A stretch of DNA of 64,000 nucleotides, taken from the sequence record MN276049.1; one strand, 5' to 3'. Source of the stretch: Acinetobacter phage BS46. The notes beneath the pieces are model-generated. The model did not search any database. It was given only the letters and a program-made list of their open reading frames with translations, and was not told the origin of the DNA. Position numbers and translations under genes: made by a program. This document shows positions 3,100 through 59,289 of this stretch, one piece after another; the first letter of the stretch is position 1, and each line of letters begins with the position of its first letter.

Positions 3100-5577
3100 A
3101 TGGCTAGTACAAAAATACAAAACTTACCAATAAAATCCCCAATCGGTTCAATGAAAATACCTACTGGTGGTTTTGGGGATTATAGCATAACAGTTAACAG
3201 TATCGGTGAATTTATTATTGATACGTTCAATCTTGCAACAACCAACTACGTTGACAATATTGTAGCGGATAAAGAAGATAGAATTCTAACTACTGGTGGA
3301 AATCTATTACCAGTTTCTCAACTTAGTGAAATACCTGATACAAATAACGACATTATTGATGAAGTTGCTCAAGCACTATTAAACAGAATAGAGTACGTTA
3401 AGGATAATTTTAGCACAGCTCCTTCACACAATGAGTTATTGGGAAGAAGTGCATCAGGTGCTCACCCATCTACATCAATATCTCATAAGTCTGGAACTGT
3501 ATATACATATCTTCAAAACAATGAAACAGATATTAATCAAATTAAAAATACAGATATTCCAAATTTAAACATTAATTTATCAAACAAACAAGATATTATT
3601 TCTATAGGGGATGCTTTATCTTCAACACCCAATCTATCACAAGTTCCGTCTGTTTCTCATACTGGTATCAATACGGCACTGCAAGCTTTACTAAACAGAA
3701 ATACATATTTTAGTAATCACAATAATCTAACAAATAAATCAGATGAAAATAGTCACCCTGCTTCAGCCATACAGGACGAAACTGGTTTTTCTCAACAAGA
3801 GATTAACAACAGTATTAAATTAAAGACTTTTGATGATCTAAAAAACTTCAAACCAATAATGAACGGTCAAACAGTTTATGTTGGACAAAGAAGCAACACC
3901 TATTTGCAAGGCGGTGGACTTTTTTATGCTGATACATCTGATACCACTAGCTTAGATAATGATGGGACAATTCTAGTTGGTATTGATGGCACAAGATGGA
4001 AGAGAAAATGGAATACTTACGCAGACCCTTGCTGGTTTGGTGCTGATTATACAGGTACGGATGATTGTTCTGCCCAAGTACAGAAAGCAGTTGATGTATC
4101 ATATGGACGCGTTTGGTTTGGAAATGCTGATCGAAGTTTCAAAATGATGACACCTGTTGGACTGCCAACTAATAGTATCGTTGGCGACATGCTAATGGAA
4201 ATCTGCGGAGATGGAGCTAGGGTTTGGGTTTACTCAAATACAGGGATTTTTACATCAAAGAGATCAATAGGATTAGAAACATCAACCGATGATCTATATA
4301 CAGCAGCTCTTGAAATCGGGCGTGGTTTGAGATTTCAGGGAGATGGAACAAGTCAATCAGTCGTTGTTAATGGTGATCGTCTTTATAACGTTAATATGAA
4401 AGGTGGTCGATATTTGCGAATATCAGCACTAGTTAGAGCAACACAGCCACGCAGGAATGAAACAACTGGATACGTACAATCCGTGACGATTGAAAGTAAT
4501 CATTTAGCCCTTTGTAATCGTATCATTGATTCTAAGCGAGGTTTTAACGTCACGGTTAGTCGCAACTTTGGTGAATCATGCTATGGAGGTGTTTATTTAG
4601 ATGGTGATGGCAGCCCTGCGGTTAACGTTATTCGCTGTGATGGAAACTTATGGGAATCCAGCGGGGTATTTGCAAAGCTTGGAGCTATTTACGCTGGTAC
4701 ATTTATTGGAAACTATTTCGAAGGTAATAATTCTGGTGATTTACCTACACTTAAATGTCTTATTGAGTTGGGTAAAACTGGTACAACTGGGTATTCAAGC
4801 GGAGTAACATTTATTGGGAATCAGTTTGGCGCTGCTAATGCCTACAAGACAGATGTTGATTATGCTGATGTTAAGTTTACCTCATCATTAAGCGGAACTA
4901 GTTTAGATATTTTAGCGCCACCAACTTTTGTTGGGAACTGGACGAATGCATATAGAATGTGGACAGCAGGTCAAGTAGTTACACAATTCGGCAACGCATT
5001 TAGTGGTGGTAATGCGCGAAGACACCAAGCACCAAAATTACACACAGAAGCCAGAGTCACTTTTGATTTATCTCGAAAGGAGTTTTTAAGCTCTACGAAC
5101 TTGGTTGGTGGTGTTCACACTATTGCTGAGGTTGACACAAACTTGATATCAAATTTAGTGAACCAGTCAGCAAGAGCCTGTACAGCTGATATGAATATAT
5201 TCATGCAAATGAAGAATTCAAGTAACGTTGTTTTGGGGGCTGCGGTTGCTAAGGTTTCTCTAGTAGTGCAAGGTTCAGAGGGTATCGGTACTGGAGCAAC
5301 AACAGATGTTTATGTTGCAGCATCTCTAACTGGATTCACTCAATTAGAAGGTGGAGTTATTGATACAGTTAACAATGTTAGCTTGTTCAAGCATTTTACA
5401 TCACCAGTTTTAACAATTGAGCGAGTAGGTACAAAATACTTATTAAAATTGTCTGGTTATGTTGCAGCAAGTGGTTCTCTGTATGGGGCAACGGCTAAAG
5501 TTTTTTCAAATACAACTATGACGATTTACTCGTTAAATAGTGGTGCTTCATTAGCTGGTCAAATATATCCAACATAA
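3100..5577 (+). CDS. tail fibre / tailspike protein (large receptor-binding protein)
   Basis: 825 aa; N-terminal IPTGGFGDYSITVNSIGEFI anchor shared with next gene; internal repeated ALLNR..HPSTSISH modules; central Gly/Asn-rich beta-helix-like region. Confidence 0.65.
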   Translation: MASTKIQNLPIKSPIGSMKIPTGGFGDYSITVNSIGEFIIDTFNLATTNYVDNIVADKEDRILTTGGNLLPVSQLSEIPDTNNDIIDEVAQALLNRIEYVKDNFSTAPSHNELLGRSASGAHPSTSISHKSGTVYTYLQNNETDINQIKNTDIPNLNINLSNKQDIISIGDALSSTPNLSQVPSVSHTGINTALQALLNRNTYFSNHNNLTNKSDENSHPASAIQDETGFSQQEINNSIKLKTFDDLKNFKPIMNGQTVYVGQRSNTYLQGGGLFYADTSDTTSLDNDGTILVGIDGTRWKRKWNTYADPCWFGADYTGTDDCSAQVQKAVDVSYGRVWFGNADRSFKMMTPVGLPTNSIVGDMLMEICGDGARVWVYSNTGIFTSKRSIGLETSTDDLYTAALEIGRGLRFQGDGTSQSVVVNGDRLYNVNMKGGRYLRISALVRATQPRRNETTGYVQSVTIESNHLALCNRIIDSKRGFNVTVSRNFGESCYGGVYLDGDGSPAVNVIRCDGNLWESSGVFAKLGAIYAGTFIGNYFEGNNSGDLPTLKCLIELGKTGTTGYSSGVTFIGNQFGAANAYKTDVDYADVKFTSSLSGTSLDILAPPTFVGNWTNAYRMWTAGQVVTQFGNAFSGGNARRHQAPKLHTEARVTFDLSRKEFLSSTNLVGGVHTIAEVDTNLISNLVNQSARACTADMNIFMQMKNSSNVVLGAAVAKVSLVVQGSEGIGTGATTDVYVAASLTGFTQLEGGVIDTVNNVSLFKHFTSPVLTIERVGTKYLLKLSGYVAASGSLYGATAKVFSNTTMTIYSLNSGASLAGQIYPT

Positions 5578-6676: not shown

Positions 6677-7441
6677 GTGAGTTTTAAGTACACTAAATCT
6701 GTTTGGAGCTTTTCTTTTAATGGGAAGAACAGAGCAATAAAAAAGTTAATCATGTTAAATCTTGCAGACAGGGCAGGAGATGATGGTTTGTGTTTTCCTT
6801 CTGTTGCTAAGATAGCAGAAGATACTTTATTAGACAGAAGAACAATCATGACTGCTATAACATCTATGATTGAAGAAGGTTTATTGGAAGACACAAAAAT
6901 GAGAAAAGGACAAACAAAACAGGTTAGGGTGTTGAGGATTTTAATAGATGTTGAAGATGACAATAAATCACTGTCAGATCACCGTAGCAAGAAGAAAGAG
7001 GATTCAGGTACGGTAGTACCACATACACCTAAAATTAAACCATGTCATGCGAAAAACACGTTTAAATCGAATGTTTCTTCTGGTGTCTCAGAATCTATGA
7101 AGAAGTCTTTTGAAGAGCAAGGGAAACCAAGAGATAATGTTGTTAAGGGTGGTGTACCAGAATCACTGAAACACTTGCTGAAAAGAAAGAAAGATGTTGT
7201 TGAAGAATCAAATGTTGAACAACACCAAGAATATTTAGAGGATTTTGAATTAACACAATCTGAATACGATGAGTGTGATGCAGCAATGTCGCATTCTCTC
7301 AACAATCCTATTGAATATGAGGATAAAGATTTGACATTGAGTGAATTAGTTGGTAGTGTGTTCAAACAAGGTGCTTCAGAAGATAGAAAGAAGATATATC
7401 AGATGGGGCAAATACAATACAAATTTAGTGAAGACTATTGA
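6677..7441 (+). CDS. helix-turn-helix (HTH_36/DnaD-like) replication-initiator or regulator protein
   Basis: LNLADRAGDDGLCFPSVAKIAEDTLLDRRTIMTAITSMIEEGLL is a typical winged-HTH replication/regulator N-domain; start uncertain (GTG 6677 after GAGG, or ATG 6752); acidic C-terminal half. Confidence 0.5.
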   Translation: MSFKYTKSVWSFSFNGKNRAIKKLIMLNLADRAGDDGLCFPSVAKIAEDTLLDRRTIMTAITSMIEEGLLEDTKMRKGQTKQVRVLRILIDVEDDNKSLSDHRSKKKEDSGTVVPHTPKIKPCHAKNTFKSNVSSGVSESMKKSFEEQGKPRDNVVKGGVPESLKHLLKRKKDVVEESNVEQHQEYLEDFELTQSEYDECDAAMSHSLNNPIEYEDKDLTLSELVGSVFKQGASEDRKKIYQMGQIQYKFSEDY

Positions 7442-24416: not shown

Positions 24417-24493
24417 GCGCTGTTAGCTCAGTTGGATAGAGCATTCGCCTTCTAAGTGAATGGTCACAGGTTCAAGTCCTGTACAGCGCGCCA
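24417..24493 (+). tRNA. tRNA-Arg (anticodon UCU), CCA encoded
   Basis: Cloverleaf: acceptor GCGCTGT/ACAGCGC, D-arm GCTC-AGTTGGATA-GAGC, anticodon stem TTCGC/GTGAA with loop CTTCTAA, T-arm ACAGG-TTCAAGT-CCTGT, discriminator G + CCA. Confidence 0.85.
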
Positions 24494-46844: not shown

Positions 46845-47564
46845 TCATGGTTGTATACCCTTAACTATAAATAGTTTTTCTACAGCATTATGCGTTGCTT
46901 TCTTTCTTGTACTTGCAAAGTTTGTTTTTACTTCACCACGCCAAACTTCAATAAAATCGTCTGGTGCGTTGTATTCTGAAACAAAAACAATATTCTTTTT
47001 AGCTTGCTGTCTACACCAATCAAAAAATTTTTCATGGTCAAACGATCCAGTTTTATAACCAGTTGTACCTTGATATGGCGGGTCGCAATAGATTAAACAA
47101 TTTTCAAAATCTAGGTTTTCATATGAATCGCAAATAAACTGCACATTTTGAATTTTTGGTGATTGTTTTATAGCATTTCTTTTTACTTCTGCCGCAAAAT
47201 TTCTAGGAGGAATACCTTGCAAATCCCTAGCATATCCATTTTCAAATTTACCACCAAAAGAACAACCAAAGCGCACCCAACTCGTAATACTTTGTGGTGG
47301 CAATCCTTTGTATCCTTTGTATTCCTTCTCACTCACAGTATCTGGTAATTTATCCACATTGTCACGAATATCAATCAACGCATGGATAGTATGATCATTC
47401 AAATCATACCCTACACGCTTGTATGTATCAGGAACTTTATCAATCATGTTTGCACCACCAACAAACGGCTCAACCCATGTGGTGATACTATGTTTTTCAG
47501 CTTCGGCTAGCATGATTGGTAATAAGTGTTTAGCTATGCGATTTTTGCTGCCCATATATTTCAC
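46845..47564 (-). CDS. DNA N6-adenine methyltransferase, D12 class (Dam-like)
   Basis: N-terminal YMGSKNRIAKHLLPIM (motif I) and YCDPPYQGTTGY (DPPY motif IV). Confidence 0.75.
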   Translation of the reverse strand: MKYMGSKNRIAKHLLPIMLAEAEKHSITTWVEPFVGGANMIDKVPDTYKRVGYDLNDHTIHALIDIRDNVDKLPDTVSEKEYKGYKGLPPQSITSWVRFGCSFGGKFENGYARDLQGIPPRNFAAEVKRNAIKQSPKIQNVQFICDSYENLDFENCLIYCDPPYQGTTGYKTGSFDHEKFFDWCRQQAKKNIVFVSEYNAPDDFIEVWRGEVKTNFASTRKKATHNAVEKLFIVKGIQP

Positions 47565-47646: not shown

Positions 47647-49005
47647 TTAAGTGTTTTTACACTTATTTAAGTAGTCAGAAAAATGTGTGTAGTCCTCATT
47701 ATCTAGAGGTAAGTCATGCAACCAATTCAAAAATAACAATCTCATTCGAGTAGACAAGATAGCTAAGGTAATTGGTTTACCATCACGAATTCTAGAACGC
47801 CACACCCATTGCAATAACTCTGAAATAGCAAATACGTCTCTATCTACAGGGTGGTTAAAGTCTTGTAAGTATGATGCAACAGATTGATTTGGATACCGAT
47901 CATATGCATGAATAACACAATACTTATGTCTATATTTGTTTGTAGCTCTTGTACTACTAGCTAACCAACAAATATTATCAGGATTAGACTTCTCTTTCAA
48001 GTGAGTATCAACCATTCCTTTGGGTTTGATCTTAGTTTTCTTACTATCACTTAGATTACAACGATCTTTAGGGAAAGTAAACATAGTTTCATAATCACTA
48101 ACACCACAATCTTTAGTTACAGCAAGAATGTAGTTAGATATATGTTTAATATCTGCTGTAGACATATTATGATAACCAGTAACAGATAGTTTTAACTCCT
48201 TTCTCCACTTGGGATGTTTAGGAGTGTACAATCGAACATTCTGCATAATAGATTGTTTACTGATCTGGTTAATTGTCACATCAGTAAATGATTTATATTC
48301 TAAACCCTTCAACTTTAAGAAGGATGAGAGGGTATTGCCTTCAAACATATATGTTAGGATAATACAACGCTTAGCTACTGTGATGAGTTTAATTGGTAAT
48401 TGACACACAAAGATATTAGCGTCACGCTTGCTCACATAGATCATTTCATTCTCTACGTGTCTCTTAAAGTTGTGATAACGGTGTGTAATATCATCAAACT
48501 CTGTTACTTCATTATTCTTCCACACTAACATACCATCATGTTCTTGAATATCAATACAGTTTAGTTTCTGTAATGATTTAACATCAGGAGAACTATAGTT
48601 CTTGTAATCATCAATCATTCCTAACTCTTCATCAATGATTAGAACATAATTATGTTTAGCCATCTCAGCAAAATGCTCATCTGTCATAGATAAATACAAA
48701 GAGTGAGTGCAGGTAATGTTAGCCCCAATCTTAAGCAAATTTAACAGGTTATCAATCTTACGTTTATCATGAACACCTCTTTGCATATCTTCAGATAACT
48801 TACGGTCTTCCTCTTTCGTCATAGGGGATACAAATCGTGTTGTTGGACATGATTGTTGAATCCTTCCTCCATCTTTAACTTCATCTAGTAATGGAGATAT
48901 ATAGAAGAACTTATACACATGGTTATTCTCTTCCATCCATTTGCAGGTGTTACGAGTCTTAGAACTACCCATAATACCATCTAGAATCTCTACAGTCTTT
49001 GTCAC
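47647..49005 (-). CDS. P-loop NTPase of unknown function
   Basis: Walker A GIMGSSKT, Walker B VLIIDEE; P-loop spacing resembles Zot/pI-type and thymidine-kinase-type ATPases but 452 aa with unrelated C-terminal half. Confidence 0.5.
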   Translation of the reverse strand: MTKTVEILDGIMGSSKTRNTCKWMEENNHVYKFFYISPLLDEVKDGGRIQQSCPTTRFVSPMTKEEDRKLSEDMQRGVHDKRKIDNLLNLLKIGANITCTHSLYLSMTDEHFAEMAKHNYVLIIDEELGMIDDYKNYSSPDVKSLQKLNCIDIQEHDGMLVWKNNEVTEFDDITHRYHNFKRHVENEMIYVSKRDANIFVCQLPIKLITVAKRCIILTYMFEGNTLSSFLKLKGLEYKSFTDVTINQISKQSIMQNVRLYTPKHPKWRKELKLSVTGYHNMSTADIKHISNYILAVTKDCGVSDYETMFTFPKDRCNLSDSKKTKIKPKGMVDTHLKEKSNPDNICWLASSTRATNKYRHKYCVIHAYDRYPNQSVASYLQDFNHPVDRDVFAISELLQWVWRSRIRDGKPITLAILSTRMRLLFLNWLHDLPLDNEDYTHFSDYLNKCKNT

Positions 49006-49015
49006 CTATTTCTCC

Positions 49016-49381
49016 TTAAATTGTATATCTTGGTTTTTTATTAACCTGACTATCAACCCATTTGTCAGAGAACTTTGTATAACCATTACGCAATCTCTGA
49101 ATCTTACTTGAGTTTCTACCAATCTGTTCTAATAATCTTGCTATTTCATGAGTACAGGCAGTTATAGATATCGTCCAACCACGACTTAATGATTTAGTGT
49201 AAACCTCTACTTGTAAATTACGTCTCTTATCAGCAAGAATACGGTTAGCTCTCTTTAACTTGATAATCTTACGTAATGCTTTTAAGCGGTAATATTCTCT
49301 CCATTGATTTAATGGGATATAACCATATTCTGTATAGTTATACTCAATACGTTTGAGTCTTTCTCTATCTTTAATCTTCAT
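49016..49381 (-). CDS. hypothetical basic protein
   Basis: 121 aa, Lys/Arg-rich. Confidence 0.45.
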   Translation of the reverse strand: MKIKDRERLKRIEYNYTEYGYIPLNQWREYYRLKALRKIIKLKRANRILADKRRNLQVEVYTKSLSRGWTISITACTHEIARLLEQIGRNSSKIQRLRNGYTKFSDKWVDSQVNKKPRYTI

Positions 49382-49926
49382 AATATTCTCCTAACACAAT
49401 AAATGACTGGCAAGTCACAAAACCAAGAACCATTAGTATTTATCCATCAACATATAAATTTACACACATCAAACTATACTTATTTATTAACATAGAGTCT
49501 TAACATTCTTCTATGTTTCTTAGAGCTTCCTTATAAGAAAGTGGTATGTAACTTGTTGATAATAAAAGTGAATAAAAAACTTATTACCCCCATCAAAGTC
49601 AAAAGTCTAATTTAGGGTACTAATTAACGGGTATTTTAACAAATAAATTAACTAATAACTATACATAAAGAAAGATAACTTAATCTTAATTGTATATTTT
49701 GTGTAACTAATATATTACAATGAATAAATCCTTACTATAACTATTGTATTGGTTATAAGTGTTAAATACACATAAAACAACAACATAAAAGAATAAGAGA
49801 TAATGTAATATAAATGTTATTATATTGTGGTGTACAACATATGTATATCACTAACATCATGATCGTTAAGATCATATATAAATATACAGCATCATATATG
49901 AGAGAACATTAGAGAACACAACACCT

Positions 49927-49943
49927 ATTGTTCGTTAGAACAT
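49927..49943. promoter_or_regulatory. operator-like palindrome, site 1
   Basis: ATTGTTC-GTTA-GAACAT. Confidence 0.4.
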
Positions 49944-50222
49944 AGCAATACCAACAGGTGTAAAGAATTTACACAACAAAAGAACACAGTTAAAAGAGTA
50001 ATAACATAGTTAAAAAGAGTAATAACTTGGAATGGGGATTACATTGGAATGGAATGAGAATGTTAATCACCTTACAAGAATATATGTCAACAAATAAAAT
50101 TTGTTATATTTTGTAATTCTACTAATAACTAAACGTTATTAATTAGGGTTACTATGTAATTTACAATTACAATTATCTGTTGTTTTCTTAATCTATAACT
50201 AATAACTTATGATTATTGACTA

Positions 50223-50251
50223 TTGACATATTCTACGAATAACTGTATGTA
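50223..50251 (+). promoter_or_regulatory. sigma70-like promoter (rightward)
   Basis: TTGACA N17 TATGTA, preceded by TTGACT. Confidence 0.5.
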
Positions 50252-50274
50252 TAACTATATATGATTGTAGTGTT

Positions 50275-50300
50275 TATCCATTGTTGTCACCAACAATATA
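50275..50300. promoter_or_regulatory. operator-like palindrome, site 2
   Basis: TATCCATTGTTG-TCAC-CAACAATATA; perfect 7-bp arms, just downstream of promoter 50223. Confidence 0.5.
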
Positions 50301-50397
50301 GCTTTTGTTGTTCTTTTTGCTTTTCTGTGTCTATCTAGCGATAGCGTAGATGCTTTTGCTTTTTAATCTTATGTATATTTGTATATAACCTTATGTG

Positions 50398-50426
50398 AAT
50401 ATCCATTGTTCTTAGCGAACAATATA
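50398..50426. promoter_or_regulatory. operator-like palindrome, site 3
   Basis: TATCCATTGTTC-TTAGC-GAACAATATA; perfect 7-bp arms. Confidence 0.5.
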
Positions 50427-50611
50427 TGTTTATATATCCTCGAAAGCTCGGATGATGTTTACATTATTCTTCTTTTGTGTTATGCTTTTGATGTTAAAGC
50501 AGACGTTGTACGGCGCTGCTGGTGGGATGTTCATATCGGATATTTTATGTTTTTAAAACATAATGCCGTTACTTTTTCCCCGTAGGGGTATGCTCTTAAA
50601 TTCTAAGGTTA

Positions 50612-50833
50612 TTGGAGATGTTTATGTTATTTGTTAAATTGTTAATTACTGTATTTATTGTATGTACTTTCTTATTTGGATTACTACAAGTCATTTACAA
50701 CATATTTAACCTAACACGTTACACTTGGTTTGAATATATTGTATTGTTCTGTGCTTTTCTAGCTGCAACTTCTGGTGTTATCTTAATAGGTTTAATGTTT
50801 GGTCATCTCTTATTCTTAATTTGGACAACATAA
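50612..50833 (+). CDS. small membrane protein
   Basis: 73 aa, two TM helices, GGAG RBS. Confidence 0.4.
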   Translation: MEMFMLFVKLLITVFIVCTFLFGLLQVIYNIFNLTRYTWFEYIVLFCAFLAATSGVILIGLMFGHLLFLIWTT

Positions 50834-51272
50834 TATAATTAATCACTAAGCTCACAATTGACCTTCTCATGCGTGAGCCTGTGTGAAAAATTTTTGGGGG
50901 AATTTTGAAAATTATTTTGAAAATACTGGTGAGTGAAAAATCATATCGGGTTTTATCGATATGATACATTATTTTTATGTAGAATGAAAGGTAAAGAAAT
51001 GTAATTTTTCTTGATTTACAATTATTTCTGTGTTATTCACACGCGTTTCTATTTATACGAAAGGTGAAAGGGTGTATCTCAGTCTTTCAACTGGTGAACA
51101 ATCCTTTGTTTCCTTGCTAGTAATGATAAAAGACGGCACTCAATTCGCCTAAATAAATGATTTTCTATATCTATTCATAAAAGATTTAATAAAATAAATA
51201 ATTAAATTCACTTTATTTTCATGTATTTATCAGTATTTTTAGTATTATTTTAAAATTATTTGAAAAAAGGAC

Positions 51273-51301
51273 TTGCAATGAATCTAAAATTTGTTATTAT
51301 G
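51273..51301 (+). promoter_or_regulatory. promoter for rightward small-gene block
   Basis: TTGCAA N17 ATTATG. Confidence 0.4.
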
Positions 51302-51348
51302 AACTCATCGAAACGAAACAAGCTAAACAGCTTTAAAGGAAAGACGTT

Positions 51349-51717
51349 ATGACTACTTCAGTATACGACAAACACTCTAAACATTTCGCTCAAGTGTCTG
51401 CTTATGTGATCATTGACAGTGAAGGGGATCAAAAAGGTAATATGTCTATTAAGTACCCAAAAGACGGTGCAGGAAAGTTATACTTATATTTACACTTACA
51501 TGGTTCACAAATGGTTCAAGTCAGTGTAAGTGGCTGCGGTTTTGATAAACTTAGTGTTGCAGTGCAAAAAGCTGCTGATACATATGTTAAGCAAAATTTA
51601 GGTAATGACAAATTAAACGTTCAAGACTTAGATTTTCTACAAGCATTATGTAATGTAAACCATGATTTTAATCGTTTTAATAAATACGGCTCATATAAGT
51701 TCTTACAAGCTATTTAA
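51349..51717 (+). CDS. hypothetical protein
   Basis: 122 aa ORF, AAGGA RBS. Confidence 0.45.
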   Translation: MTTSVYDKHSKHFAQVSAYVIIDSEGDQKGNMSIKYPKDGAGKLYLYLHLHGSQMVQVSVSGCGFDKLSVAVQKAADTYVKQNLGNDKLNVQDLDFLQALCNVNHDFNRFNKYGSYKFLQAI

Positions 51718-51730
51718 GGAATTGTTTCAA

Positions 51731-51940
51731 ATGTACAAAATAATCGAAAGTAGTGCAATGTCACAAAAGCAAGGTACATCAAAGTATGTAATTATGTTAG
51801 ATTCTTCTCGTTTTGACTATGTATATGTAGGCAAATTTAATCGAGATCATTTTGATTTTATCGAAAAAACTGGAATTAAAAACTTAACACAAGCTGATTT
51901 AGAAAGAATCTATTGTGAGAGAAAAAAGAAGTTTAATTGA
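51731..51940 (+). CDS. hypothetical protein
   Basis: ATG 51731 (track start 51662 overlaps previous gene). Confidence 0.4.
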   Translation: MYKIIESSAMSQKQGTSKYVIMLDSSRFDYVYVGKFNRDHFDFIEKTGIKNLTQADLERIYCERKKKFN

Positions 51941-52159
51941 GGACCTAACATGTTAAAAGTTACATTAGAGAATTATCAAGTAATATATGTTAAAAGTATT
52001 GGTGAAGCTCATGAGCAAGCTTTTAAGTTAGGACAACGTATCCGTAACGTTGAATGACAGTTAGACAAACGTGCATTGTGTTAAGAACAATATGATGCGC
52101 AATATTAAATGATTCTTTTGGAGTTTTTATTCCATTACATTACATAAAGGTAAAATATT

Positions 52160-52609
52160 ATGTTCAATTTCGATGTCAACACAAACGAATCTGTTCAACG
52201 TGTTATCACTTCAGCTTACAACTCTAAGCAACGTGTACGTATTGTTTACGGTAATTCTGAAGACGGTATAGATTGGTTAGAAGAGTATGATGTTATAGGT
52301 ACAATCGGACGTTCAACGGGTGAAAGAAAAGTGCCATTGTTAATTAATAACACAAAGTCTTTGGGTGGTGGTGCAATCTTGACAGCTAACATATTAAAGA
52401 TTGTTGATGTTAAAAGTAAACGTGTTTTATACCAACACGAGAAATATCAGACACCTATTCTTGTTAAGTGTGCATCACGCCATGAAGATTATATGTATGA
52501 TGTTTATCACTCGTTAAACGGTGAAAACAAATTACATGCTAGATTTAAAAACGAAAAACAAGCTGACAACTATATAGCGTTCATGCTCTGTAAACGTATG
52601 AGTAAATAA
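52160..52609 (+). CDS. hypothetical protein
   Basis: 149 aa ORF. Confidence 0.45.
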   Translation: MFNFDVNTNESVQRVITSAYNSKQRVRIVYGNSEDGIDWLEEYDVIGTIGRSTGERKVPLLINNTKSLGGGAILTANILKIVDVKSKRVLYQHEKYQTPILVKCASRHEDYMYDVYHSLNGENKLHARFKNEKQADNYIAFMLCKRMSK

Positions 52610-52627
52610 CAAGGAGGATTTAAACCA

Positions 52628-52834
52628 ATGTTAATCATTAACCGTTACAAATGCCCTATATCAGGTAAAACATCAATCTGTGCCCATAAAGTTAATAACA
52701 TGAAAGTGATTAAATCATATAAACCATGTGATGAATCGTTTATTGAAATGTTATCTCAAGGACATAAGCAATTCTTATTATGTGACGTTCCTGCTTACAG
52801 TATGTTAGCTAAAATCAATATTGTTAAAAGTTAA
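52628..52834 (+). CDS. hypothetical protein
   Basis: 68 aa ORF, AGGAGG RBS. Confidence 0.45.
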   Translation: MLIINRYKCPISGKTSICAHKVNNMKVIKSYKPCDESFIEMLSQGHKQFLLCDVPAYSMLAKINIVKS

Positions 52835-52843
52835 TCGGAGTAT

Positions 52844-53131
52844 ATGAAAATGAAGATTACAAAAGAACATGCATTGTTCTATGCAAGCAAGAAAAGTAAA
52901 CTTTTCCCGTGTGACGTTAGCATTCACACATTGATTAATGTACAAACTAAGTTAGATAAGAGATTTATAGACAAACACAACGATTTGCAGTTGTTAAAGA
53001 TGATTTATCGACGTTGTAAACGCAATAAAGAAAACCTTATAACTGAATTGACTAGGATTGAGTTGTCAGGTTATAGCAAGAATAGAACAAGATTATTTAG
53101 AAAATATAGATTAAAATTATCAAGGATGTAA
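52844..53131 (+). CDS. hypothetical basic protein
   Basis: 95 aa ORF. Confidence 0.45.
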   Translation: MKMKITKEHALFYASKKSKLFPCDVSIHTLINVQTKLDKRFIDKHNDLQLLKMIYRRCKRNKENLITELTRIELSGYSKNRTRLFRKYRLKLSRM

Positions 53132-53142
53132 GTTGAAAATGC

Positions 53143-53170
53143 TTGCATCCTTTTTTTGTTTCTGTATAAT
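53143..53170 (+). promoter_or_regulatory. sigma70-like promoter
   Basis: TTGCAT N16 TATAAT; overlaps hairpin GGATG...CATCC + T-run. Confidence 0.45.
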
Positions 53171-53207
53171 GAAAAATATAAGGTAAATAACTTAAAGGAA
53201 ATTTGAA

Positions 53208-53375
53208 ATGAGTACAATTTCAGAAATTCAAAACACTAAACAACAAGAGCTTAACTTGTTAAAACTTGCATATTACAAATGCAGTAATTGTGGTTTTGTT
53301 AGATCTCATGATTGCTATTTTGCAATAAGCCATTTCTTATGTTGTAACTTATGTGGTAACGAGATAGAATCTTAA
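53208..53375 (+). CDS. small zinc-ribbon protein (55 aa)
   Basis: CSNCGF...CCNLCGNE; AAAGGAAA RBS; not in ORF track. Confidence 0.4.
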   Translation: MSTISEIQNTKQQELNLLKLAYYKCSNCGFVRSHDCYFAISHFLCCNLCGNEIES

Positions 53376-53442
53376 TTGTTTATTTATCCGTGACAATCTG
53401 GTATGGTTGTCATTAATAAGTAATCAGTTGAAAGGTATTTAT

Positions 53443-53652
53443 ATGAAATTAGAATTGCGCTTTACAAGTCATAATGGTACAATTATTCGTAAATTTGAAT
53501 TACGTTCTGATATTGATGAAATGATTCAAGTACAAAACCGTTTAGAAAGTTTTCTACATCATGTCAACAGATATAATTTGCGTACTGTAAAAGAAATATT
53601 AGAACGTGATTTAATTCGCTATGATGATTTAATTTTAATCTGGTTTTCATAA
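53443..53652 (+). CDS. hypothetical protein
   Basis: ATG 53443. Confidence 0.4.
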   Translation: MKLELRFTSHNGTIIRKFELRSDIDEMIQVQNRLESFLHHVNRYNLRTVKEILERDLIRYDDLILIWFS

Positions 53653-53742
53653 ATAAATAAATTTTTATTAAATACACTTTACACTGTTTTAAAGATTCTG
53701 TTATACTTGCTTCATACAGTGAAAAACTCAGGAATCACAGAC

Positions 53743-54096
53743 ATGTTATCTCAAATCACCACTAAGTCATTCAATGTTTACTTAAACAACAACACCATTA
53801 CACTTGCTAAATGTCGTGTAACTGGTCGTTTTGTTAAACACGCTATAGCTCAAGTTGAATTAGACGCAGAATTAAAAGCACGTTCAGAAGCTATGAATAG
53901 CATTTCTTTTGTTGAACAAGCTAAAAAACGCCATGCAGCATTCACTAAAGCACGTTTGAATGCTGCTGCTATTGAGAACGTAAACAAAGCAATTAATAAC
54001 TCGTTAGTTGAAAAAGCTAAAATACAATTACAAGCTTCACTAGCTAAAGTTGCAATGTTAGGCATGATTACACTATCTGCTTTCAATTTTGCTTAA
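53743..54096 (+). CDS. hypothetical protein with hydrophobic C-terminus
   Basis: ATG 53743 after AGGA. Confidence 0.4.
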   Translation: MLSQITTKSFNVYLNNNTITLAKCRVTGRFVKHAIAQVELDAELKARSEAMNSISFVEQAKKRHAAFTKARLNAAAIENVNKAINNSLVEKAKIQLQASLAKVAMLGMITLSAFNFA

Positions 54097-54141
54097 TGTA
54101 GTATATAGTTTAAACAACAAACCCCACAAAAGGAATACATC

Positions 54142-54327
54142 ATGGTAAATCAGAAACAGTTAGCTATCGAATTGAATGAAGCTTATATAGAGTATTACAA
54201 CGACTTCTTAACAGTAGAACGTTATGCAACATACAAAGGTTGGTCCTTGTTCTTCACTAAACAAGTGATTAAGTCAGGTCGAAAGATCAATCATAATCAA
54301 GAGTTATTAAACAAACTTTATTCATAA
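54142..54327 (+). CDS. hypothetical protein
   Basis: 61 aa ORF, AAGGA RBS. Confidence 0.4.
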   Translation: MVNQKQLAIELNEAYIEYYNDFLTVERYATYKGWSLFFTKQVIKSGRKINHNQELLNKLYS

Positions 54328-54338
54328 GGAATATAACC

Positions 54339-54506
54339 ATGTTATTTAAACTTATTCTACTCGTAACAATGAATGGTAACGTATACGCTGATGTAGTAGA
54401 CTATGATCTAACTAGAGAGGATTGTATTAATCAAATGATCTATGTTAATAGTAAATTAAAGAATGATTCTATAGAGTATATCTGTCAAGGTGAAATAGAA
54501 TATTAA
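54339..54506 (+). CDS. small protein with N-terminal signal-like segment (55 aa)
   Basis: MLFKLILLVTMNGNVYA...; not in ORF track. Confidence 0.35.
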   Translation: MLFKLILLVTMNGNVYADVVDYDLTREDCINQMIYVNSKLKNDSIEYICQGEIEY

Positions 54507-54523
54507 ACCAACTAAACACACAA

Positions 54524-54548
54524 TGCCCGCCTAGTGCGGGTTTTTTAT
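54524..54548 (+). terminator. rho-independent terminator
   Basis: CCCGCC-TAGT-GCGGG + TTTTTTATT. Confidence 0.7.
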
Positions 54549-55037
54549 TGTCTAAAGAAAAGTAATAGAGAATAGATCAAATAACATAGCATTGTAGAGC
54601 CGTATACAAGCCTTATTAAGCTTTAATTAGGTGTAGTGGTACTATCCTACCTTAATTGGTAAACATTGCTGTAATCGCTCTATATGAGCAAATAAAAGAA
54701 TGTTGTTGAGTAAAGTTTATTGTTTAGTATTCTTATTTAAATTTAAATCATTAAAGAATTAAACCAATGCCCACATATAAGAATAAAAGAGCTAAGTAAG
54801 AATGTTTCTAACAAAAGATATAAACAAAGATTAAAAGCTTATGTGATTGGTTATCTATCCATGCATAGGATACACGGGCAATGTGAAATTAAAGTCATTA
54901 ATCTTTGAAGCGATATTATAGGATATTTTAAAATATAAAAGGCTTAATTATTGAGGGCAGTCGGAAGGTGTTAAGCACTCCATTATATAGATAATGATAT
55001 TTTCCAACTATAGCACCCCACCTCCAATTCTAAAAAC

Positions 55038-55265
55038 CTACTTCCAAAAATTTTTCCCAAAATCTTCAGAGCTGTATAATTTGTCCCAAGTTTGCATAAC
55101 TTGCCACCCATATACAAACACACCAACTCTTTTCATACACACACCAAGTTCGATGTGGGTAATATAGAAAACACCAGCATGATATATAACACACATTTCC
55201 TCACTGTTATGTACAACGCAATAGGATGATGGTATCATTATGTGATCTGAAATTACCTGTAGCAT
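55038..55265 (-). CDS. hypothetical protein
   Basis: 75 aa ORF. Confidence 0.4.
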   Translation of the reverse strand: MLQVISDHIMIPSSYCVVHNSEEMCVIYHAGVFYITHIELGVCMKRVGVFVYGWQVMQTWDKLYSSEDFGKNFWK

Positions 55266-55344
55266 TATTTAATACTCCTTGTGTTATGTATAAGAATAAA
55301 ACATGTTCTTGATTATAGTAAGTAATTGTTGTAAAAAAGTCCCA

Positions 55345-55533
55345 TCAAAGGGGCTTGCAGTTTTCTTCATAATACCTGAAATCACCAGAAAATAAATTCC
55401 ACCAATCACCATTATCATCAGCAGCCAACCAGTGACCTTCATCATTCAAATAATAACAAATATACCCATCAACACACTCTTCATAATGTGTCGCTCCTTC
55501 AGGAGCATTTCTCTTAATCTCGTCAATATTCAT
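55345..55533 (-). CDS. ATHY-motif small protein, copy 1
   Basis: MNIDEIKRNAPEGATHY...; AGGA RBS; stop embedded in terminator-like hairpin + T6. Confidence 0.5.
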   Translation of the reverse strand: MNIDEIKRNAPEGATHYEECVDGYICYYLNDEGHWLAADDNGDWWNLFSGDFRYYEENCKPL

Positions 55534-55541
55534 TTTCAATC

Positions 55542-55721
55542 CTAGCAAAGCGGTTTAATGTCTCTGTATTTTCTTGGGTCAAAATGCAATGATAACCAGC
55601 AATCTTCACGATCATCCCACTCAAACCACTGGAAATTAAAATAAAAATATCCAATATATGGTTCACTACAATAATGCGTTGCACCCTTTGGTTTGTTCTT
55701 TCTAATTTCTTCAATATCCAT
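55542..55721 (-). CDS. ATHY-motif small protein, copy 2 (unannotated, 59 aa)
   Basis: MDIEEIRKNKPKGATHYCSEPY...; AGGA RBS; track shows only an out-of-frame ORF here. Confidence 0.5.
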   Translation of the reverse strand: MDIEEIRKNKPKGATHYCSEPYIGYFYFNFQWFEWDDREDCWLSLHFDPRKYRDIKPLC

Positions 55722-55914
55722 AATACAATCCTAAATTAAGTGGCTTAATAAAACTATTATGTGACCAACCAGTTATCCTCCACATACCATTACAGTATTT
55801 TAAATTCATACCATATGGTGGTCTCATGTAGTACTCAACCTCTCGACCAGCTTTTATAATTCTGTAGTGTGTCGCACCCTTCGGAGCATTAGCTCTGATT
55901 TCATCAATGTTCAC
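55711..55914 (-). CDS. ATHY-motif small protein, copy 3
   Basis: (M)VNIDEIRANAPKGATHY...; GTG start after GGAG. Confidence 0.5.
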   Translation of the reverse strand: MNIDEIRANAPKGATHYRIIKAGREVEYYMRPPYGMNLKYCNGMWRITGWSHNSFIKPLNLGLYYGY

Positions 55915-56185
55915 TTATAAACTCCAAAGCATCTTGAAATATACACCAATCAATTTTAAATCCATTATTAAGCATATCTGATTTTGCTTTATTTAATTCG
56001 GATTGATTTTCGCAAGCTATGTAATCAACACCAAATATCTTTTTATTATTCATGAAATGGATTAACACATAATTTCCAACCATCTCATGACTGTCCTTTG
56101 TCAACCATATTCTTGACATTGCAAAATCAAATTTATGGTGAAATCCTTTCTTTCTAGCTAACTCTATTGACTTAATCATTATCAA
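55904..56185 (-). CDS. hypothetical protein
   Basis: 93 aa ORF. Confidence 0.4.
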   Translation of the reverse strand: MIMIKSIELARKKGFHHKFDFAMSRIWLTKDSHEMVGNYVLIHFMNNKKIFGVDYIACENQSELNKAKSDMLNNGFKIDWCIFQDALEFISEH

Positions 56186-56273
56186 ACCTCATCTTGTCGT
56201 AGTGTATGTATGTATAAATAAGCTTTATATATCCAGCAATATTGATATTCATGATTGTATTCAAAGGATGCTA

Positions 56274-56672
56274 TTATTTAGTTAGATCCTCAATATCAAT
56301 ATCTTTAATATTTCGAACTGCATATGCTAGGTTCTTGTAGCTAGATAGCTTTCGATTTAAATCACTGTACTGAGTGACAAGTCTTTGATTGTCAGCAATC
56401 AGGCGCTCTATGCACTGTTCTTTATCTTTATTTGCTTGAACTCTTGCTTTTGATTTGATTGCTTTGATCTGTGTGCGGTATTGAGGTAATTGTTCTGCTC
56501 CAACACCGTGCAGAAAATGTTCTAAGCTCTTAGTCAATCGACTACTATTTTTTGTGATGAACATTGTGAAGAAACCCGCATCTATTCTGATCATCTTATC
56601 AAAAGACTCATGTCCAAATTCATGACAGACAAATATTCTTGGAAAGCAAAATCTAAATTCAATAAAAATCAT
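56274..56672 (-). CDS. hypothetical protein
   Basis: ATG 56672 after GAGGA. Confidence 0.45.
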   Translation of the reverse strand: MIFIEFRFCFPRIFVCHEFGHESFDKMIRIDAGFFTMFITKNSSRLTKSLEHFLHGVGAEQLPQYRTQIKAIKSKARVQANKDKEQCIERLIADNQRLVTQYSDLNRKLSSYKNLAYAVRNIKDIDIEDLTK

Positions 56673-56781
56673 AACACAATCCTCTAATTAATTCTTCACC
56701 AGAAGAATAAAAACACAAATTCCAGCAATAACAAGCCAAACAAATGACCAGCCTGTTCCTCTTTTCATTAATTCATACTCT

Positions 56782-57141
56782 TCATGTCGACTTACTGTTA
56801 AATACTTTTATTTCTGGTCTTTTTTCCAATGAATCTTGCCACTCACCCTTATATGGATTTTCATAAGACCAATATATGAGTCTTTTATTGCCTCCACAAT
56901 ACCAAAACCCTGAATGTAGCCATCCACTTAAAGGCTTCCCTTCATACCCCCATACAAATCCGTTTTCATTTTTTGCAACCCAATTCACATCATCTGGAAT
57001 TTTTGACCAGTCATATTTAGTTTTAGGTTCTTCGTTTTCGTTACTTTGAATGTATTCATTAAGCATTTCACGCATCATAAAGAACAAAACTGTGATGCTC
57101 ACTGAATAGATGATTAGTACACTAATTATAAATGTTATCAT
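56782..57141 (-). CDS. membrane-anchored protein
   Basis: N-terminal TM helix. Confidence 0.4.
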   Translation of the reverse strand: MITFIISVLIIYSVSITVLFFMMREMLNEYIQSNENEEPKTKYDWSKIPDDVNWVAKNENGFVWGYEGKPLSGWLHSGFWYCGGNKRLIYWSYENPYKGEWQDSLEKRPEIKVFNSKST

Positions 57142-57509
57142 CCTTCCCCCTTGAGCGCTTGCTCTGCCTTTTTCAAGATCATCATTTTTCTCCTAGTACG
57201 CGCATTAAATTCTTGAGTTTTAAATGATCCGATTACAGCAGCGCGCATTTTACTTAATGTGTCCGTAGCTTTTAATCGATTTTCTAACCATTCCACTCGC
57301 TTTTGCAGCTCCTCCACCTGTTCTTCCAAAGAACAAACTTTCGATTGTTGGTGTTGCAATCCCTGCTTAAAACCCTCAAATCTATCCTTGTAACCTGACG
57401 CATAAGGATCAATTAGTATATAAACATGCTGACAGTAACCATCACCGCAACGACTCAAATTTTCTGGAATTGGATTAATAGATTCATATAAATCTTGTAG
57501 TTCACTCAT
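57138..57509 (-). CDS. hypothetical protein
   Basis: 123 aa ORF. Confidence 0.4.
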   Translation of the reverse strand: MSELQDLYESINPIPENLSRCGDGYCQHVYILIDPYASGYKDRFEGFKQGLQHQQSKVCSLEEQVEELQKRVEWLENRLKATDTLSKMRAAVIGSFKTQEFNARTRRKMMILKKAEQALKGEG

Positions 57510-57544
57510 AATCGATCACCTTACAATTCTTAGAGATATGATTC

Positions 57545-57826
57545 TCAATGTGGGAGTCGTCGCCCATGTCTTGTCATGATGCTTTCACCTTCTTCTAATT
57601 CGTTAAGTACTTGGCTAGCAGTTTCATAATCATGAAATTCTTCTAGTAGGTTTATTGCTTTAAACTCACTCATGGCTGGCTCCTTGCAATCCACAATTTC
57701 AACCTTTACATCATTGTCAGATTCTCTAAATTGAATACCTTTATGCTCTAATACAAACTTTTCTGCATCCGTCTGATCAGCCCATTCCAATAGAGCGCGT
57801 TTAGACTTTTTCCTTTTTTCACTCAT
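57545..57826 (-). CDS. hypothetical protein
   Basis: 93 aa ORF. Confidence 0.4.
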   Translation of the reverse strand: MSEKRKKSKRALLEWADQTDAEKFVLEHKGIQFRESDNDVKVEIVDCKEPAMSEFKAINLLEEFHDYETASQVLNELEEGESIMTRHGRRLPH

Positions 57827-58151
57827 CTCCGCCTCCGTATATTGATTCGTGGTCGCGTACAGCCTCTCGAATTGGTTCAGGGTCTTCTGTCAGTTCATGT
57901 AGCATGTAAAGACTTTGCTTGCATGACTCGATACCACCATAAGACTCGACCAAATCCAAAGACTTCACCAGACGCTTGACCACGGACCGTTCAAACACAC
58001 GATCTCCATGATGTGGTTTAATTTCATCTGTAAAATCAATTTCACCTTCATGAACCACCAAATACTTAGCAGTGTTGACAAATGACATTGATATTCTGAA
58101 AGTGTTAGGCCCAAACTCACGAATAAACTGTTCTGGTTTCATAATGAGCAC
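57819..58151 (-). CDS. hypothetical protein
   Basis: 110 aa ORF. Confidence 0.4.
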   Translation of the reverse strand: MLIMKPEQFIREFGPNTFRISMSFVNTAKYLVVHEGEIDFTDEIKPHHGDRVFERSVVKRLVKSLDLVESYGGIESCKQSLYMLHELTEDPEPIREAVRDHESIYGGGDE

Positions 58152-58414
58152 TCCAAAGATTCAATAAATTCGTAAATCTCATTGCCTGTTTTTAGTGAGA
58201 AAAGTTTTTCTATGATTTCTGTAGTTGCCTCATAGTTATCACCCTTACCGCGACCATCTGTAATGAGGAATCCATCTCCAGCACAGTATGTAATGCCAAT
58301 TTCATGAGCGCCCAATAAACTAAAATGCTGCTCAACCTCTTTAAAGAAATCATTCACAGTAGTTTGAGCTTTATGTGCTCTTGCCAATCCCCTTAATGCT
58401 TGAAGTGGTTTCAT
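58139..58414 (-). CDS. hypothetical protein
   Basis: 91 aa ORF. Confidence 0.4.
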   Translation of the reverse strand: MKPLQALRGLARAHKAQTTVNDFFKEVEQHFSLLGAHEIGITYCAGDGFLITDGRGKGDNYEATTEIIEKLFSLKTGNEIYEFIESLECSL

Positions 58415-58548
58415 TGTTGCTCACTCTTTAACTTGTTAATTTGCGCATAAACTTTGCCCCATCTTTCTTGATCAGCTTTCATTCTTTGCTCTTCTCTAAT
58501 CAATCTTTTTATGTGTGGATCTATTAACAGTCTGCAACTATTTTTCAT

Positions 58549-58740
58549 TTAATTCTCCATGCAATATTTGATTGCTTGTTCCAACATTCTAAATTGAGCC
58601 AACACAACATGATCTTCACCCTCAACATACCAAATTGAGTCGTCTTGTGATTCTTTTATAACAAGGTTATTTACTTGTATTTGGATCTCACCAGAAACCA
58701 CTTTCGCTTCAATCATTTCGCCATTACCCCTACGATGCAA
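58549..58740 (-). CDS. hypothetical protein
   Basis: 63 aa ORF. Confidence 0.35.
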   Translation of the reverse strand: MHRRGNGEMIEAKVVSGEIQIQVNNLVIKESQDDSIWYVEGEDHVVLAQFRMLEQAIKYCMEN

Positions 58741-58907
58741 TAAGAATCCTTGATCTTTCCTTTATTCCCATATGTCTTTGCATTTTGCAAACACTGCTGC
58801 ATATTGACTTGCGGTATTTGAATGGTGGCGATTGCTTTACCAGTATCACCAGTATAACCACCCGCAGGTACATATAAAACCAAAATCAAATAAACTACAT
58901 TAATCAT
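58713..58907 (-). CDS. small protein with signal-peptide-like N-terminus
   Basis: MINVVYLILVLYVPAGG... Confidence 0.35.
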   Translation of the reverse strand: MINVVYLILVLYVPAGGYTGDTGKAIATIQIPQVNMQQCLQNAKTYGNKGKIKDSYCIVGVMAK

Positions 58908-59061
58908 TTCAAATACTCTCCTGTTTGGTATGCGACATTAATCAAAATAAGCTACAAAGAAATTCTTCATATCTATTGTATCACCACAATCTAGTTCGTC
59001 AATAGGTACTCCTAAATTTCTTAGGAATTCACTACGATTGCAATCACAAGAATAGTTGTCT

Positions 59062-59289
59062 TTATGATTTTCCATAATAACCCCCAAATATATTGTGACG
59101 CATAATCTCAGAAATTACATCAACAATTTCCAATGACTTTTCAGAAATTAGTATATCGTACTTTTCTTTATCTGTAAACACTAATTTTTCAACTTTTAAT
59201 CTCTCAAGCTGTACATGTAAAGAATGTAGTTTTGTATAAAGTTTTGCTAATGCACTTGTTGTTTCTAAATCAAACATCGTACTCTCCAT
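59062..59289 (-). CDS. hypothetical protein
   Basis: 75 aa ORF. Confidence 0.4.
   Translation of the reverse strand: MESTMFDLETTSALAKLYTKLHSLHVQLERLKVEKLVFTDKEKYDILISEKSLEIVDVISEIMRHNIFGGYYGKS

Follow-up and report, generated by a model that had tools for sequence, protein, structure and literature searches.

What purpose is served by close to 2 kb of AT-rich, largely non-coding DNA lying between a block of leftward genes and a block of small rightward genes is the question raised by positions 49382-51348 (1967 nt) of Acinetobacter phage BS46, numbered within the 64,000 nucleotides of record MN276049.1 that were analysed and are referred to here as the window. A preliminary description of this region, prepared from the letters of the sequence, proposed a regulatory hub built on three palindromic operator copies and a consensus promoter, and named a replication origin or a terminal-repeat junction as a fallback. 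The layout it gave, with non-coding DNA separating the leftward block from the rightward small-gene block, was correct, and the small-gene block would itself be a terminal repeat. The headline is not supported, given that the palindrome is present in two copies and the promoter is neither consensus nor conserved. Of the two fallback readings, the origin is without support, while the records of related phages strongly support a terminal-repeat junction. With a probability of roughly 0.82, the region is the point at which the ends of a linear genome with terminal redundancy meet in an assembly that has collapsed the repeat.

The predicted terminal-repeat junction

DNA matches to the region are confined to myophages of Acinetobacter baumannii, save for a 41-nt stretch (51290-51330, within the first early gene's leader) that matches Escherichia phage vB_EcoS_PHB17 at 93%, probably by chance. 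The best relative is Phab24, with 90% identity over 62% of the query, and shorter pieces of the region match phiAB441, TaPaz, Herod, Ab15, B9, YMC13/03/R2096 and P577. On these similarities, the window belongs to an Acinetobacter myophage of the Phab24/B9/TaPaz group. A review of these phages places Phab24, BS46, TaPaz and B9 in one cluster, with Herod and YMC13 in a sister cluster; both this review and the papers on TaPaz and Phab24 are silent on the genome termini, and papers on AbpL and vB_AbaM_P1 were set aside because these phages belong to other genera. As deposited or assembled, the sequences of BS46, Phab24, TaPaz and phiAB441 are circular or begin at an arbitrary point. Positions 49242-59116 of the window recur with 100% identity in a Logan contig of run SRR10030293.

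Exact direct terminal repeats (DTRs) are found in the GenBank records of Ab15 (5018 bp), B9 (4915 bp; MH133207), Ab5 (3864 bp) and Ab3-TPeters (3972 bp; PP763256, hereafter Ab3), and the Ab7 record, which also matched at two places, is counted with them among the relatives having a DTR of 3.9-5.0 kb (Ab5, Ab7 and Ab3 together being PP763256-8). With a slash marking the boundary, the left end of the B9 repeat reads ...GTAGTGTTA/ATCACCTTAG... (also written GTGTTA/ATCACCTTAG), and that of Ab5 and Ab3 reads ...ATCACCTTAG/A..., such that the DTR begins after ATCACCTTAG. The phiAB441 record, in turn, begins at CCTTAG. These boundaries and the phiAB441 start, which come from independent depositors, are all at most 10 nt apart and lie inside one 12-mer, TTAATCACCTTA, which contains the left boundary in four of the five records with a DTR. 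The 12-mer is present as a single copy in the window (50063-50074) and as a single copy at the homologous place in the complete Phab24 genome, and it recurs at the same place in TaPaz and in the related loci L151, L152 and L154. It always falls between the last leftward gene and a gene for a small membrane protein, from which it is separated by 558 nt in the window versus 605 nt in B9. In the more distant relatives L155 and L156, GTGTTAAACA stands at the same intergenic position.

At the opposite end, alignment places the terminus of the B9 repeat, GGTATT/AAACA, on GGTGTT/AAGCA of the window (54972/54973). The right boundary in the records of four relatives lies within a similar core, GTRTTAARCA, and the right core is also found in Phab24 and in L154, where it is of the B9 type. 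Both boundaries contain the core GTRTTAA(N)CA in direct orientation; its form TGTTAANCAC has four matches in the window against 1.4 expected, two of which are the predicted boundaries. Because both boundary motifs occupy homologous positions in the window, a DTR of 4907 bp is predicted at 50066-54972, or at 50076-54962 under the convention of the Ab5 record. That the repeats of the Ab5 and Ab3 records are set inward by 10 nt on either side is taken to be a library artefact.

The surroundings of these motifs agree with the prediction. Sequence homologous to a deposited boundary lies at the homologous position of the window, and the gene content of the predicted repeat is like that of the relatives' repeats in its 68-amino acid (aa) open reading frame (ORF), its promoter block and the position of its small membrane gene. 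The DTRs of B9, Ab5, Ab7 and Ab3 have the same left 12-mer and the same right core, and the B9 repeat is of similar length (~4.9 kb). The B9 group also shows the same order of elements, which runs from non-coding DNA through the cut, an AT-rich end, a promoter, a two-helix membrane gene, a terminator, a conserved early promoter and small early genes to a second terminator and cut; unlike the records of that group, however, the BS46 record leaves the repeat unannotated and collapsed. Compared with L154, the window is ~0.7 identical left of 50066 (0.33-0.94 per 30-nt bin) and 0.93-1.0 identical over the next 150 nt. Additionally, each predicted DTR boundary falls in one of the two longest stretches of the window that are free of ORFs. 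The longer stretch is 49382-50378, counting ORFs of at least 60 aa, and to this extent the region is indeed the largest non-coding stretch, as had been claimed, although the full 2 kb include a 69-aa gene at 50624-50833. No part of the window is richer in A and T than this region (GC 0.28-0.29).

Several points weigh against this reading. The terminal repeat and the exact ends of BS46 are inferred by homology rather than observed, and the repeats of the relatives are taken as deposited in their GenBank records. Each boundary is placed 10 nt differently under the B9 and Ab5 conventions, which leaves the cut defined to ~10 nt. The motif at the right boundary is short and has two further matches in the window, and in the cluster-13 phage Ab15 the boundary sequences are unrelated, which means that not every member of the wider group has this cut motif. 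Finally, where the two longer palindromes inside the predicted left end (sites 2 and 3, treated below) are concerned, site 2 is no more conserved than the 100 nt in which it lies, so that selection on the palindromes in particular is not demonstrated.

Proposed arrangement of the genome ends

Under the reading favoured here, the virion DNA of BS46 would start at ~50066 and the repeat would end at ~54972. Positions 49382-50065 would then close the unique genome as its final, non-coding segment, comprising one or more leftward promoters and the sequence beside the terminase cut, and positions 50066-51348 would form the first 1.3 kb of the repeat. Within the latter, a conserved segment of ~150 nt would be followed by a variable stretch, two repeat modules, a promoter designated P2, the 69-aa gene, a terminator and the main early promoter. 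By analogy with phages T5 and SPO1, the host RNA polymerase would transcribe the repeat first after DNA entry, and concatemers would be cleaved by the terminase at the two related motifs as the repeat undergoes duplication. The palindromes may serve as the site of a protein, of phage or host origin, that acts on the first promoters, or they may form hairpins in the first leader transcripts. The features on which this arrangement is built are collected in Table 1.

Table 1. Features of the predicted junction and terminal repeat, in window coordinates
Feature	Position	Strand	Basis or remark
Non-coding right end of the unique genome, just outside the predicted DTR	49382-50065		no ORF of at least 60 aa
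Conserved island, TAATTGTAYRYTTTRTGTAACT..ATATTA..AATAAA	49683-49730	-	common to window/Phab24 and B9/Ab5/TaPaz
Site 1, 5-bp inverted repeat TGTTC-GTTA-GAACA (TGTTCGTTAGAACA)	49929-49942		chance-level
Tandem repeat, period 21, 2.1 copies	49983-50026		Tandem Repeats Finder score 74
TGGAATG word in three copies, immediately left of the cut	50028-50057	+	at 50028, 50045 and 50050
Left terminus motif, TGTTAATCACCTTA	50061-50074	+	end at 50065/50066 (B9 convention) or 50075/50076 (Ab5 convention)
Predicted DTR, single collapsed copy, small early genes	50066-54972	+	exact repeats of relatives with the same early-gene block
Doubtful promoter of the preliminary description, TTGACA-N17-TATGTA	50223-50251	+	-10 without final T; not listed by promoter scan
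Repeat module A, holds site 2	50240-50302	+	aligns with module B over ~65 nt
Repeat module B, holds site 3	50364-50436	+	site 3 within a longer imperfect hairpin, 50392-50436
Promoter P2, TTTACA-N17-TGtTATGCT, extended -10	50458-50486	+	promoter scan; conserved in L154
Gene for 69-aa protein with two hydrophobic helices, first of the predicted DTR	50624-50833	+	GGAG 6 nt upstream
Bidirectional intrinsic terminator	50940-50965		terminator scan, both strands
Conserved non-coding block with main early promoter	51025-51345	+	85-91% identity in relatives
Terminator closing the early operon	54525-54541	+	~430 nt before the predicted right DTR boundary
Right terminus motif, GTGTTAAGCA	54968-54977	+	predicted DTR end at 54972/54973

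DNA outside the predicted left end

The stretch left of the cut must hold the promoter or promoters of the leftward genes that start at 49381, and its equivalent in B9 is a gap of 635 nt that separates AB9_156 from the right-hand DTR copy. Within ~385 nt of the terminus, two blocks are common to both lineages, namely the conserved island and the terminus 12-mer; apart from the island, the flanks of the 12-mer cannot be aligned between the lineage of the window, Phab24 and L154 and that of B9. We infer that the island is a candidate leftward promoter, with TACAAT as its -10 element on the minus strand. Homology to Phab24 begins at 49681, although the flanking leftward genes differ. Of these, the 452-aa gene beside the junction (47647-49005, minus strand) matches PHROG 2467, of unknown function, and its homologues in the relatives carry the Pfam domain YonV_C, and the next gene (46845-47564, minus strand) encodes a D12-class N6-adenine DNA methyltransferase.

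Site 1, taken earlier for a third and shorter copy of the operator, has no flanks in common with sites 2 and 3, is altered to TATTCATTGGAATA in L154, and is of a type that matched at least once in 15 of 100 shuffled sequences. The tandem repeat is real, its period being 21 bp rather than the 18 bp first given for 49989-50027, and its unit occurs once in Phab24 and twice in L154. The GGAATG repeats are likewise present, in three copies (50029, 50046 and 50051); because L154, as third member of the lineage, has not kept the longer TGGAATG words, they are probably non-functional. Enrichment of k-mers around the terminus gave borderline signals alone (TGGAATG three times, AGAACA four times, and TATGT).

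Promoters, the first gene and terminators inside the predicted left end

The ~150 nt directly right of the cut is near-invariant and AT-rich, and is followed by a variable, promoter-like stretch. It is here that a consensus promoter had been placed at 50223. The sequence is present, but its -10 element is without the conserved final T and it is not maintained among the relatives: it reads TTGCTT..TATGTG in Phab24, its TTGACA is lost in L154, and all three phages have indels in the region. P2, further downstream, is homologous to TTCTTCTTTGT..TGTGTTATAAT/TATATT in Ab5, TaPaz and B9, and is a candidate for the promoter that serves the small membrane-protein gene.

The 69-aa product of this gene has annotated counterparts of the same length, position and hydrophobic pattern in B9, TaPaz, Ab5 and phiAB441, at 15-25% identity, and positions 50624-50833 are called as a gene on the Logan contig as well. 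No Pfam or PHROG match was obtained for the protein, and tblastn found nothing. The leader of the gene contains a perfect 9-bp palindrome, TTATGTTTT-A-AAAACATAA (50545-50563), after which stands a block, AATGCCGTT..CCCCGTAGGGG, that is conserved in the B9 lineage. In the corresponding leaders of that lineage (for example L019, ~3560-3620, and L021, ~4450-4500), the position of a hairpin is constant but its stem is exchanged, being CTAAGAC..GTCTTAG in B9, TaPaz, phiAB441 and Ab3 and CTGATC..GATCAG in Ab5, with conserved TTGCTCC...GAGCA on its flanks; this may be a structured leader.

The bidirectional terminator that follows corresponds to one annotated at the same place in B9, after AB9_001. 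Beyond it lies the conserved block of ~320 nt, which maintains its identity of 85-91% in members of both clusters (Phab24, phiAB441, TaPaz, B9, Herod, Ab15, YMC13/03/R2096 and P577) and is more conserved than most nearby coding DNA, while the first gene after it is non-homologous among the relatives. Its sole ORF, of 40 codons, is broken by frame-breaking indels. Evidence for a structured RNA was likewise lacking: the block showed no covariation, RNAalifold on 51030-51160 returned -12.8 kcal/mol with no compensatory pairs, and there was no Rfam match. Indeed, a scan of the window with Rfam 15 reached the gathering threshold for one tRNA alone (24417-24490, plus strand), and gave no match at E values up to 1 in 49300-51400. 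The promoter within the block, TTGCAA-N16-TGtTATTAT at 51273-51300, is preceded by ~170 nt of near-invariant AT-rich DNA, and we take the block to be the main early promoter plus an extended element upstream of it. At the far end of the predicted repeat, the terminator closing the early operon has a counterpart in B9 (4457-4473), 442 nt before the end of the DTR.

The palindromes of the predicted left end

Sites 2 and 3 are perfect 7-bp inverted repeats with identical flanks, exactly as first described, and would lie 210 and 335 nt inside the left end. Site 2 (TATCCATTGTT-GTCACC-AACAATAT, 50275-50299) has the stem ATTGTTG and CAACAAT around a 4-nt loop, TCAC, and site 3 (TATCCATTGTT-CTTAGCG-AACAATAT, 50400-50425) has the stem ATTGTTC and GAACAAT around a 5-nt loop, TTAGC. 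Each ends one of the two aligned modules, which share the pattern TATGTATA..TATAT..GTG..TATCCATTGTT-loop-AACAATATA and are 73% alike, yet have identical arms of 11 and 8 nt. In Phab24 and L154 both sites are identical to those of the window, loops included, save for one flank base. Neither the 11-mer nor the perfect inverted repeat is found elsewhere in the 64 kb, and the complete 93.6-kb Phab24 genome likewise holds two copies of the full motif and no more. We read the palindromes as local cis elements of a left-end module rather than as members of a dispersed operator set.

The exact motif TATCCATTGTT-N4-9-AACAATAT gave 10 single-copy matches in IMG/VR, without DNA similarity to the window by blastn, and at least 120 single-copy matches among those listed from JGI and other metagenomes, where real relatives could have been missed. 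Most simply, all of these are chance matches, those from the metagenomes not having been compared singly with the window. A likeness of the site 2 and 3 flanks to the cut site (TGTTWAKC) was dropped, as the pattern has 32 matches in the window; TTGTAGTGTT beside site 2 equals the pre-cut word of B9 but is altered in Phab24; and the 122-aa product of the first gene, considered as a binder, was rejected because its gene also occurs with a B9-type module in L151. A separate observation is that Phab24 homology stops at 50430, just after site 3, and resumes before the terminator (50430-50875 versus 3695-4628 of L001), with a 186-aa gene and a 65-aa membrane gene in place of the intervening DNA in Phab24, which looks like a cassette exchange with the palindrome as its left junction.

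With respect to the role of the palindromes, a protein site is tentatively preferred, by a little, because their non-palindromic flanks and loops are unchanged in three phages that are ~85% identical overall. The next candidate, for which the case is similarly tentative, is that sites 2 and 3 are 5'-proximal stem-loops of short leader or small RNAs that stabilise or process the first early transcripts. The innermost stem pair differs between the two sites in a compensatory way (G-C versus C-G), while the loops differ in both length and sequence. Site 3 folds strongly as RNA (-24.6 kcal/mol over 101 nt, z -4.45), with the flank change from U to C in L154 converting a U-G pair of its outer stem to C-G, and U-rich tracts and a second hairpin lie downstream of site 2. 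The replaced stems of the B9-type leader hairpin (CUAAGAC/GUCUUAG versus CUGAUC/GAUCAG) are of the same tenor. However, site 2 is weak as RNA (-5 kcal/mol, z -1.9; as DNA -4.9 kcal/mol, z -4.4), neither site has a conserved promoter upstream, and the loops are invariant in the three phages, which a plain structural hairpin would not need. There was also no Rfam match, and three near-identical sequences are no real test of covariation. As intrinsic terminators the sites are poor, each stem containing one G-C pair, and the terminator scan lists 50940-50965 alone in the region.

It is less likely, though still conceivable, that the palindromes are without a function of their own, being leftovers of a tandem duplication of ~65 nt within an end module that is kept for packaging or DNA entry. 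The position of the sites at the ends of two aligned modules, the further partial duplication of the same module in L154, the equal conservation of the flanks and the absence of the motif from all other lineages, which have other sequences there, would all fit. Such leftovers would not be expected, however, to keep a perfect 7-bp stem in both copies despite a changed innermost pair, nor identical arms in modules otherwise so diverged.

Less probable again is the headline of the preliminary description, in which a dimeric phage repressor acts on a three-copy operator and site 2 blocks the promoter at 50223. The sites are true palindromes with identical non-palindromic flanks that are conserved together with their loops, site 3 of Phab24 abuts a perfect extended -10 element (TGTTATAAT) and would cover the -35 element and spacer of that promoter, and at the equivalent place in B9-type phages palindromes stand directly after TTGACT-N17-TATAAC. 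Yet where an operator would be expected to show several copies with constant half-site spacing, there are two, in the window as in the Phab24 genome, with site 1 at chance level; their arms are 6 and 7 nt apart, a difference of 1 bp, and the distance from site to site varies, at 125 nt in the window versus 166 nt in L154. Site 2 follows the promoter-like sequence that is neither consensus nor conserved, and site 3 would cover part of the promoter at TGTTATAAT in Phab24 alone; in the window it lies ~80 nt upstream of the P2 start, without overlap with P2, and the main early promoter at 51273-51300 has no copy of the palindrome. A candidate repressor gene is also missing nearby, as Pfam and PHROGs found no DNA-binding domain in the neighbouring or DTR genes, and the 122-aa first gene occurs in L151 with a B9-type module that lacks the sites. 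The helix-turn-helix gene at 6677-7000 (plus strand), which had been suggested, contains an HTH_36 domain with a weak DnaD_N match; its product resembles a replication or primosome-type protein more than a repressor and is not linkable to sites 2 and 3.

A replication origin composed of an AT-rich unwinding region and iterons is very improbable, for although base composition, the 21-bp tandem repeat, the short repeated words and the HTH_36/DnaD_N-like protein encoded at 6677 would suit one, the 21-bp unit, with 2.1 copies in the window, is single in Phab24, L154 is without the GGAATG words, DnaA-box-like sequences are at chance level and not clustered in the region, the turns in GC skew follow gene orientation, no initiator gene is adjacent, and the three or more conserved iterons, the initiator gene or the DnaA boxes that would mark an iteron origin were not found.

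End modules and early genes among the relatives

Around the shared cut site, the B9-type phages have another version of the sequence, which covers ~385 nt on its left side and ~400 nt on its right. In B9, Ab5, TaPaz and Ab3 (L019, L021, L003 and L150), this version contains 11-16 TAGTGT words on the same strand, placed symmetrically around the cut from -260 to +275 and rare elsewhere in the loci, and ACTAGTG..CACTAGT palindromes are located at +150 to +195 from the end. The window, Phab24 and L154 have neither, and contain the two TATCCATTGTT..AACAATAT modules instead. In Ab15, four GRGATAACYTCTRGG units lie just outside the repeat.

These lineage words do not follow the type of terminase. The large terminases of Phab24 and B9 are 58% identical, with two adjacent genes at 73-76%, and the large terminase of Ab3 is 98.8% identical to that of Phab24; Ab3 cuts at TTAATCACCTTA, in agreement with the left end predicted for the window, and has a terminal repeat of the B9/Ab5 type. 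Because Ab3 pairs a Phab24-type terminase with a B9/Ab5-type repeat, terminase gene and end module therefore assort independently. A correlation of the words with terminase type was accordingly rejected, and since L151 combines the 122-aa first gene of the window type with an end module of the B9 type that has no sites 2 and 3, neither the terminase nor the 122-aa protein is an obvious partner of the palindromes.

It is possible, if doubtful, that the first ~400 nt inside the left end constitutes an exchangeable end module, whose lineage-specific words and palindromes (TATCCATTGTT..AACAATAT; TAGTGT/ACTAGTG; GRGATAACYTCTRGG) would be a candidate binding array for a protein acting on the incoming or packaged DNA end. 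Such an array would not depend on the terminase, given that Ab3, with its Phab24-type large terminase, has the B9-type module together with the same cut-site 12-mer. Possible roles include protection of the end, control of DNA entry and switching off of the first promoters.

The genes of the predicted DTR are small, are without known function and are exchanged among the relatives, traits that are expected of early take-over genes; none of them had a match in Pfam or PHROGs. The 68-aa ORF (52628-52834, plus strand) is 92-100% identical in Phab24, Herod, Ab15, P577, YMC13/03/R2096, TaPaz and B9, again spanning both clusters, and lies inside the DTRs of B9 and Ab15, hence at two places in each record. 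No other early protein comes close to it in conservation, and its neighbours are freely swapped; a weak relative is present in Vibrio phage VH-8 (31%), and the ORF likewise has no Pfam or PHROG match. Phab24_id069, considered as a relative of Ab15 CDS0001, proved not to be related.

Comparison with known systems and implications

Multi-kilobase direct repeats at both genome ends that hold the first-expressed host-takeover genes and are rich in small genes of unknown function are known from T5, where they form the pre-early, first-step-transfer region, and from SPO1. These repeats, of ~10 and ~13 kb, respectively, are bounded by terminators and read by the host RNA polymerase from strong sigma-70-type promoters. 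The predicted BS46 repeat is shorter (~4.9 kb), and its likeness to them is one of layout, homology not having been sought; no sign of a two-step transfer or of an injection stop signal was seen. The palindromes, for their part, resemble OR and OL of phage lambda as short, tandem and conserved palindromes near early promoters. They differ in their inconstant spacing, in their number of two, in having no adjacent repressor gene and, in the window, in their apparent lack of overlap with a conserved promoter core.

As DTRs have already been deposited for the relatives, the additions made here are small, consisting of a cut-site core found at both boundaries and a swappable end module. That a short cut-site core (GTRTTAAWCA) is kept across sub-lineages while the end module surrounding it is swapped is of modest conceptual value, and the two palindromes provide a small, testable handle on a factor that may act at the genome end. 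For the phage itself, a linear DNA with ends at ~50066 and ~54972 and a repeat of ~4.9 kb would fix the genome map and identify the set of early, host take-over genes. Knowledge of the ends is also needed for rebooting or engineering A. baumannii phages that are candidates for therapy.

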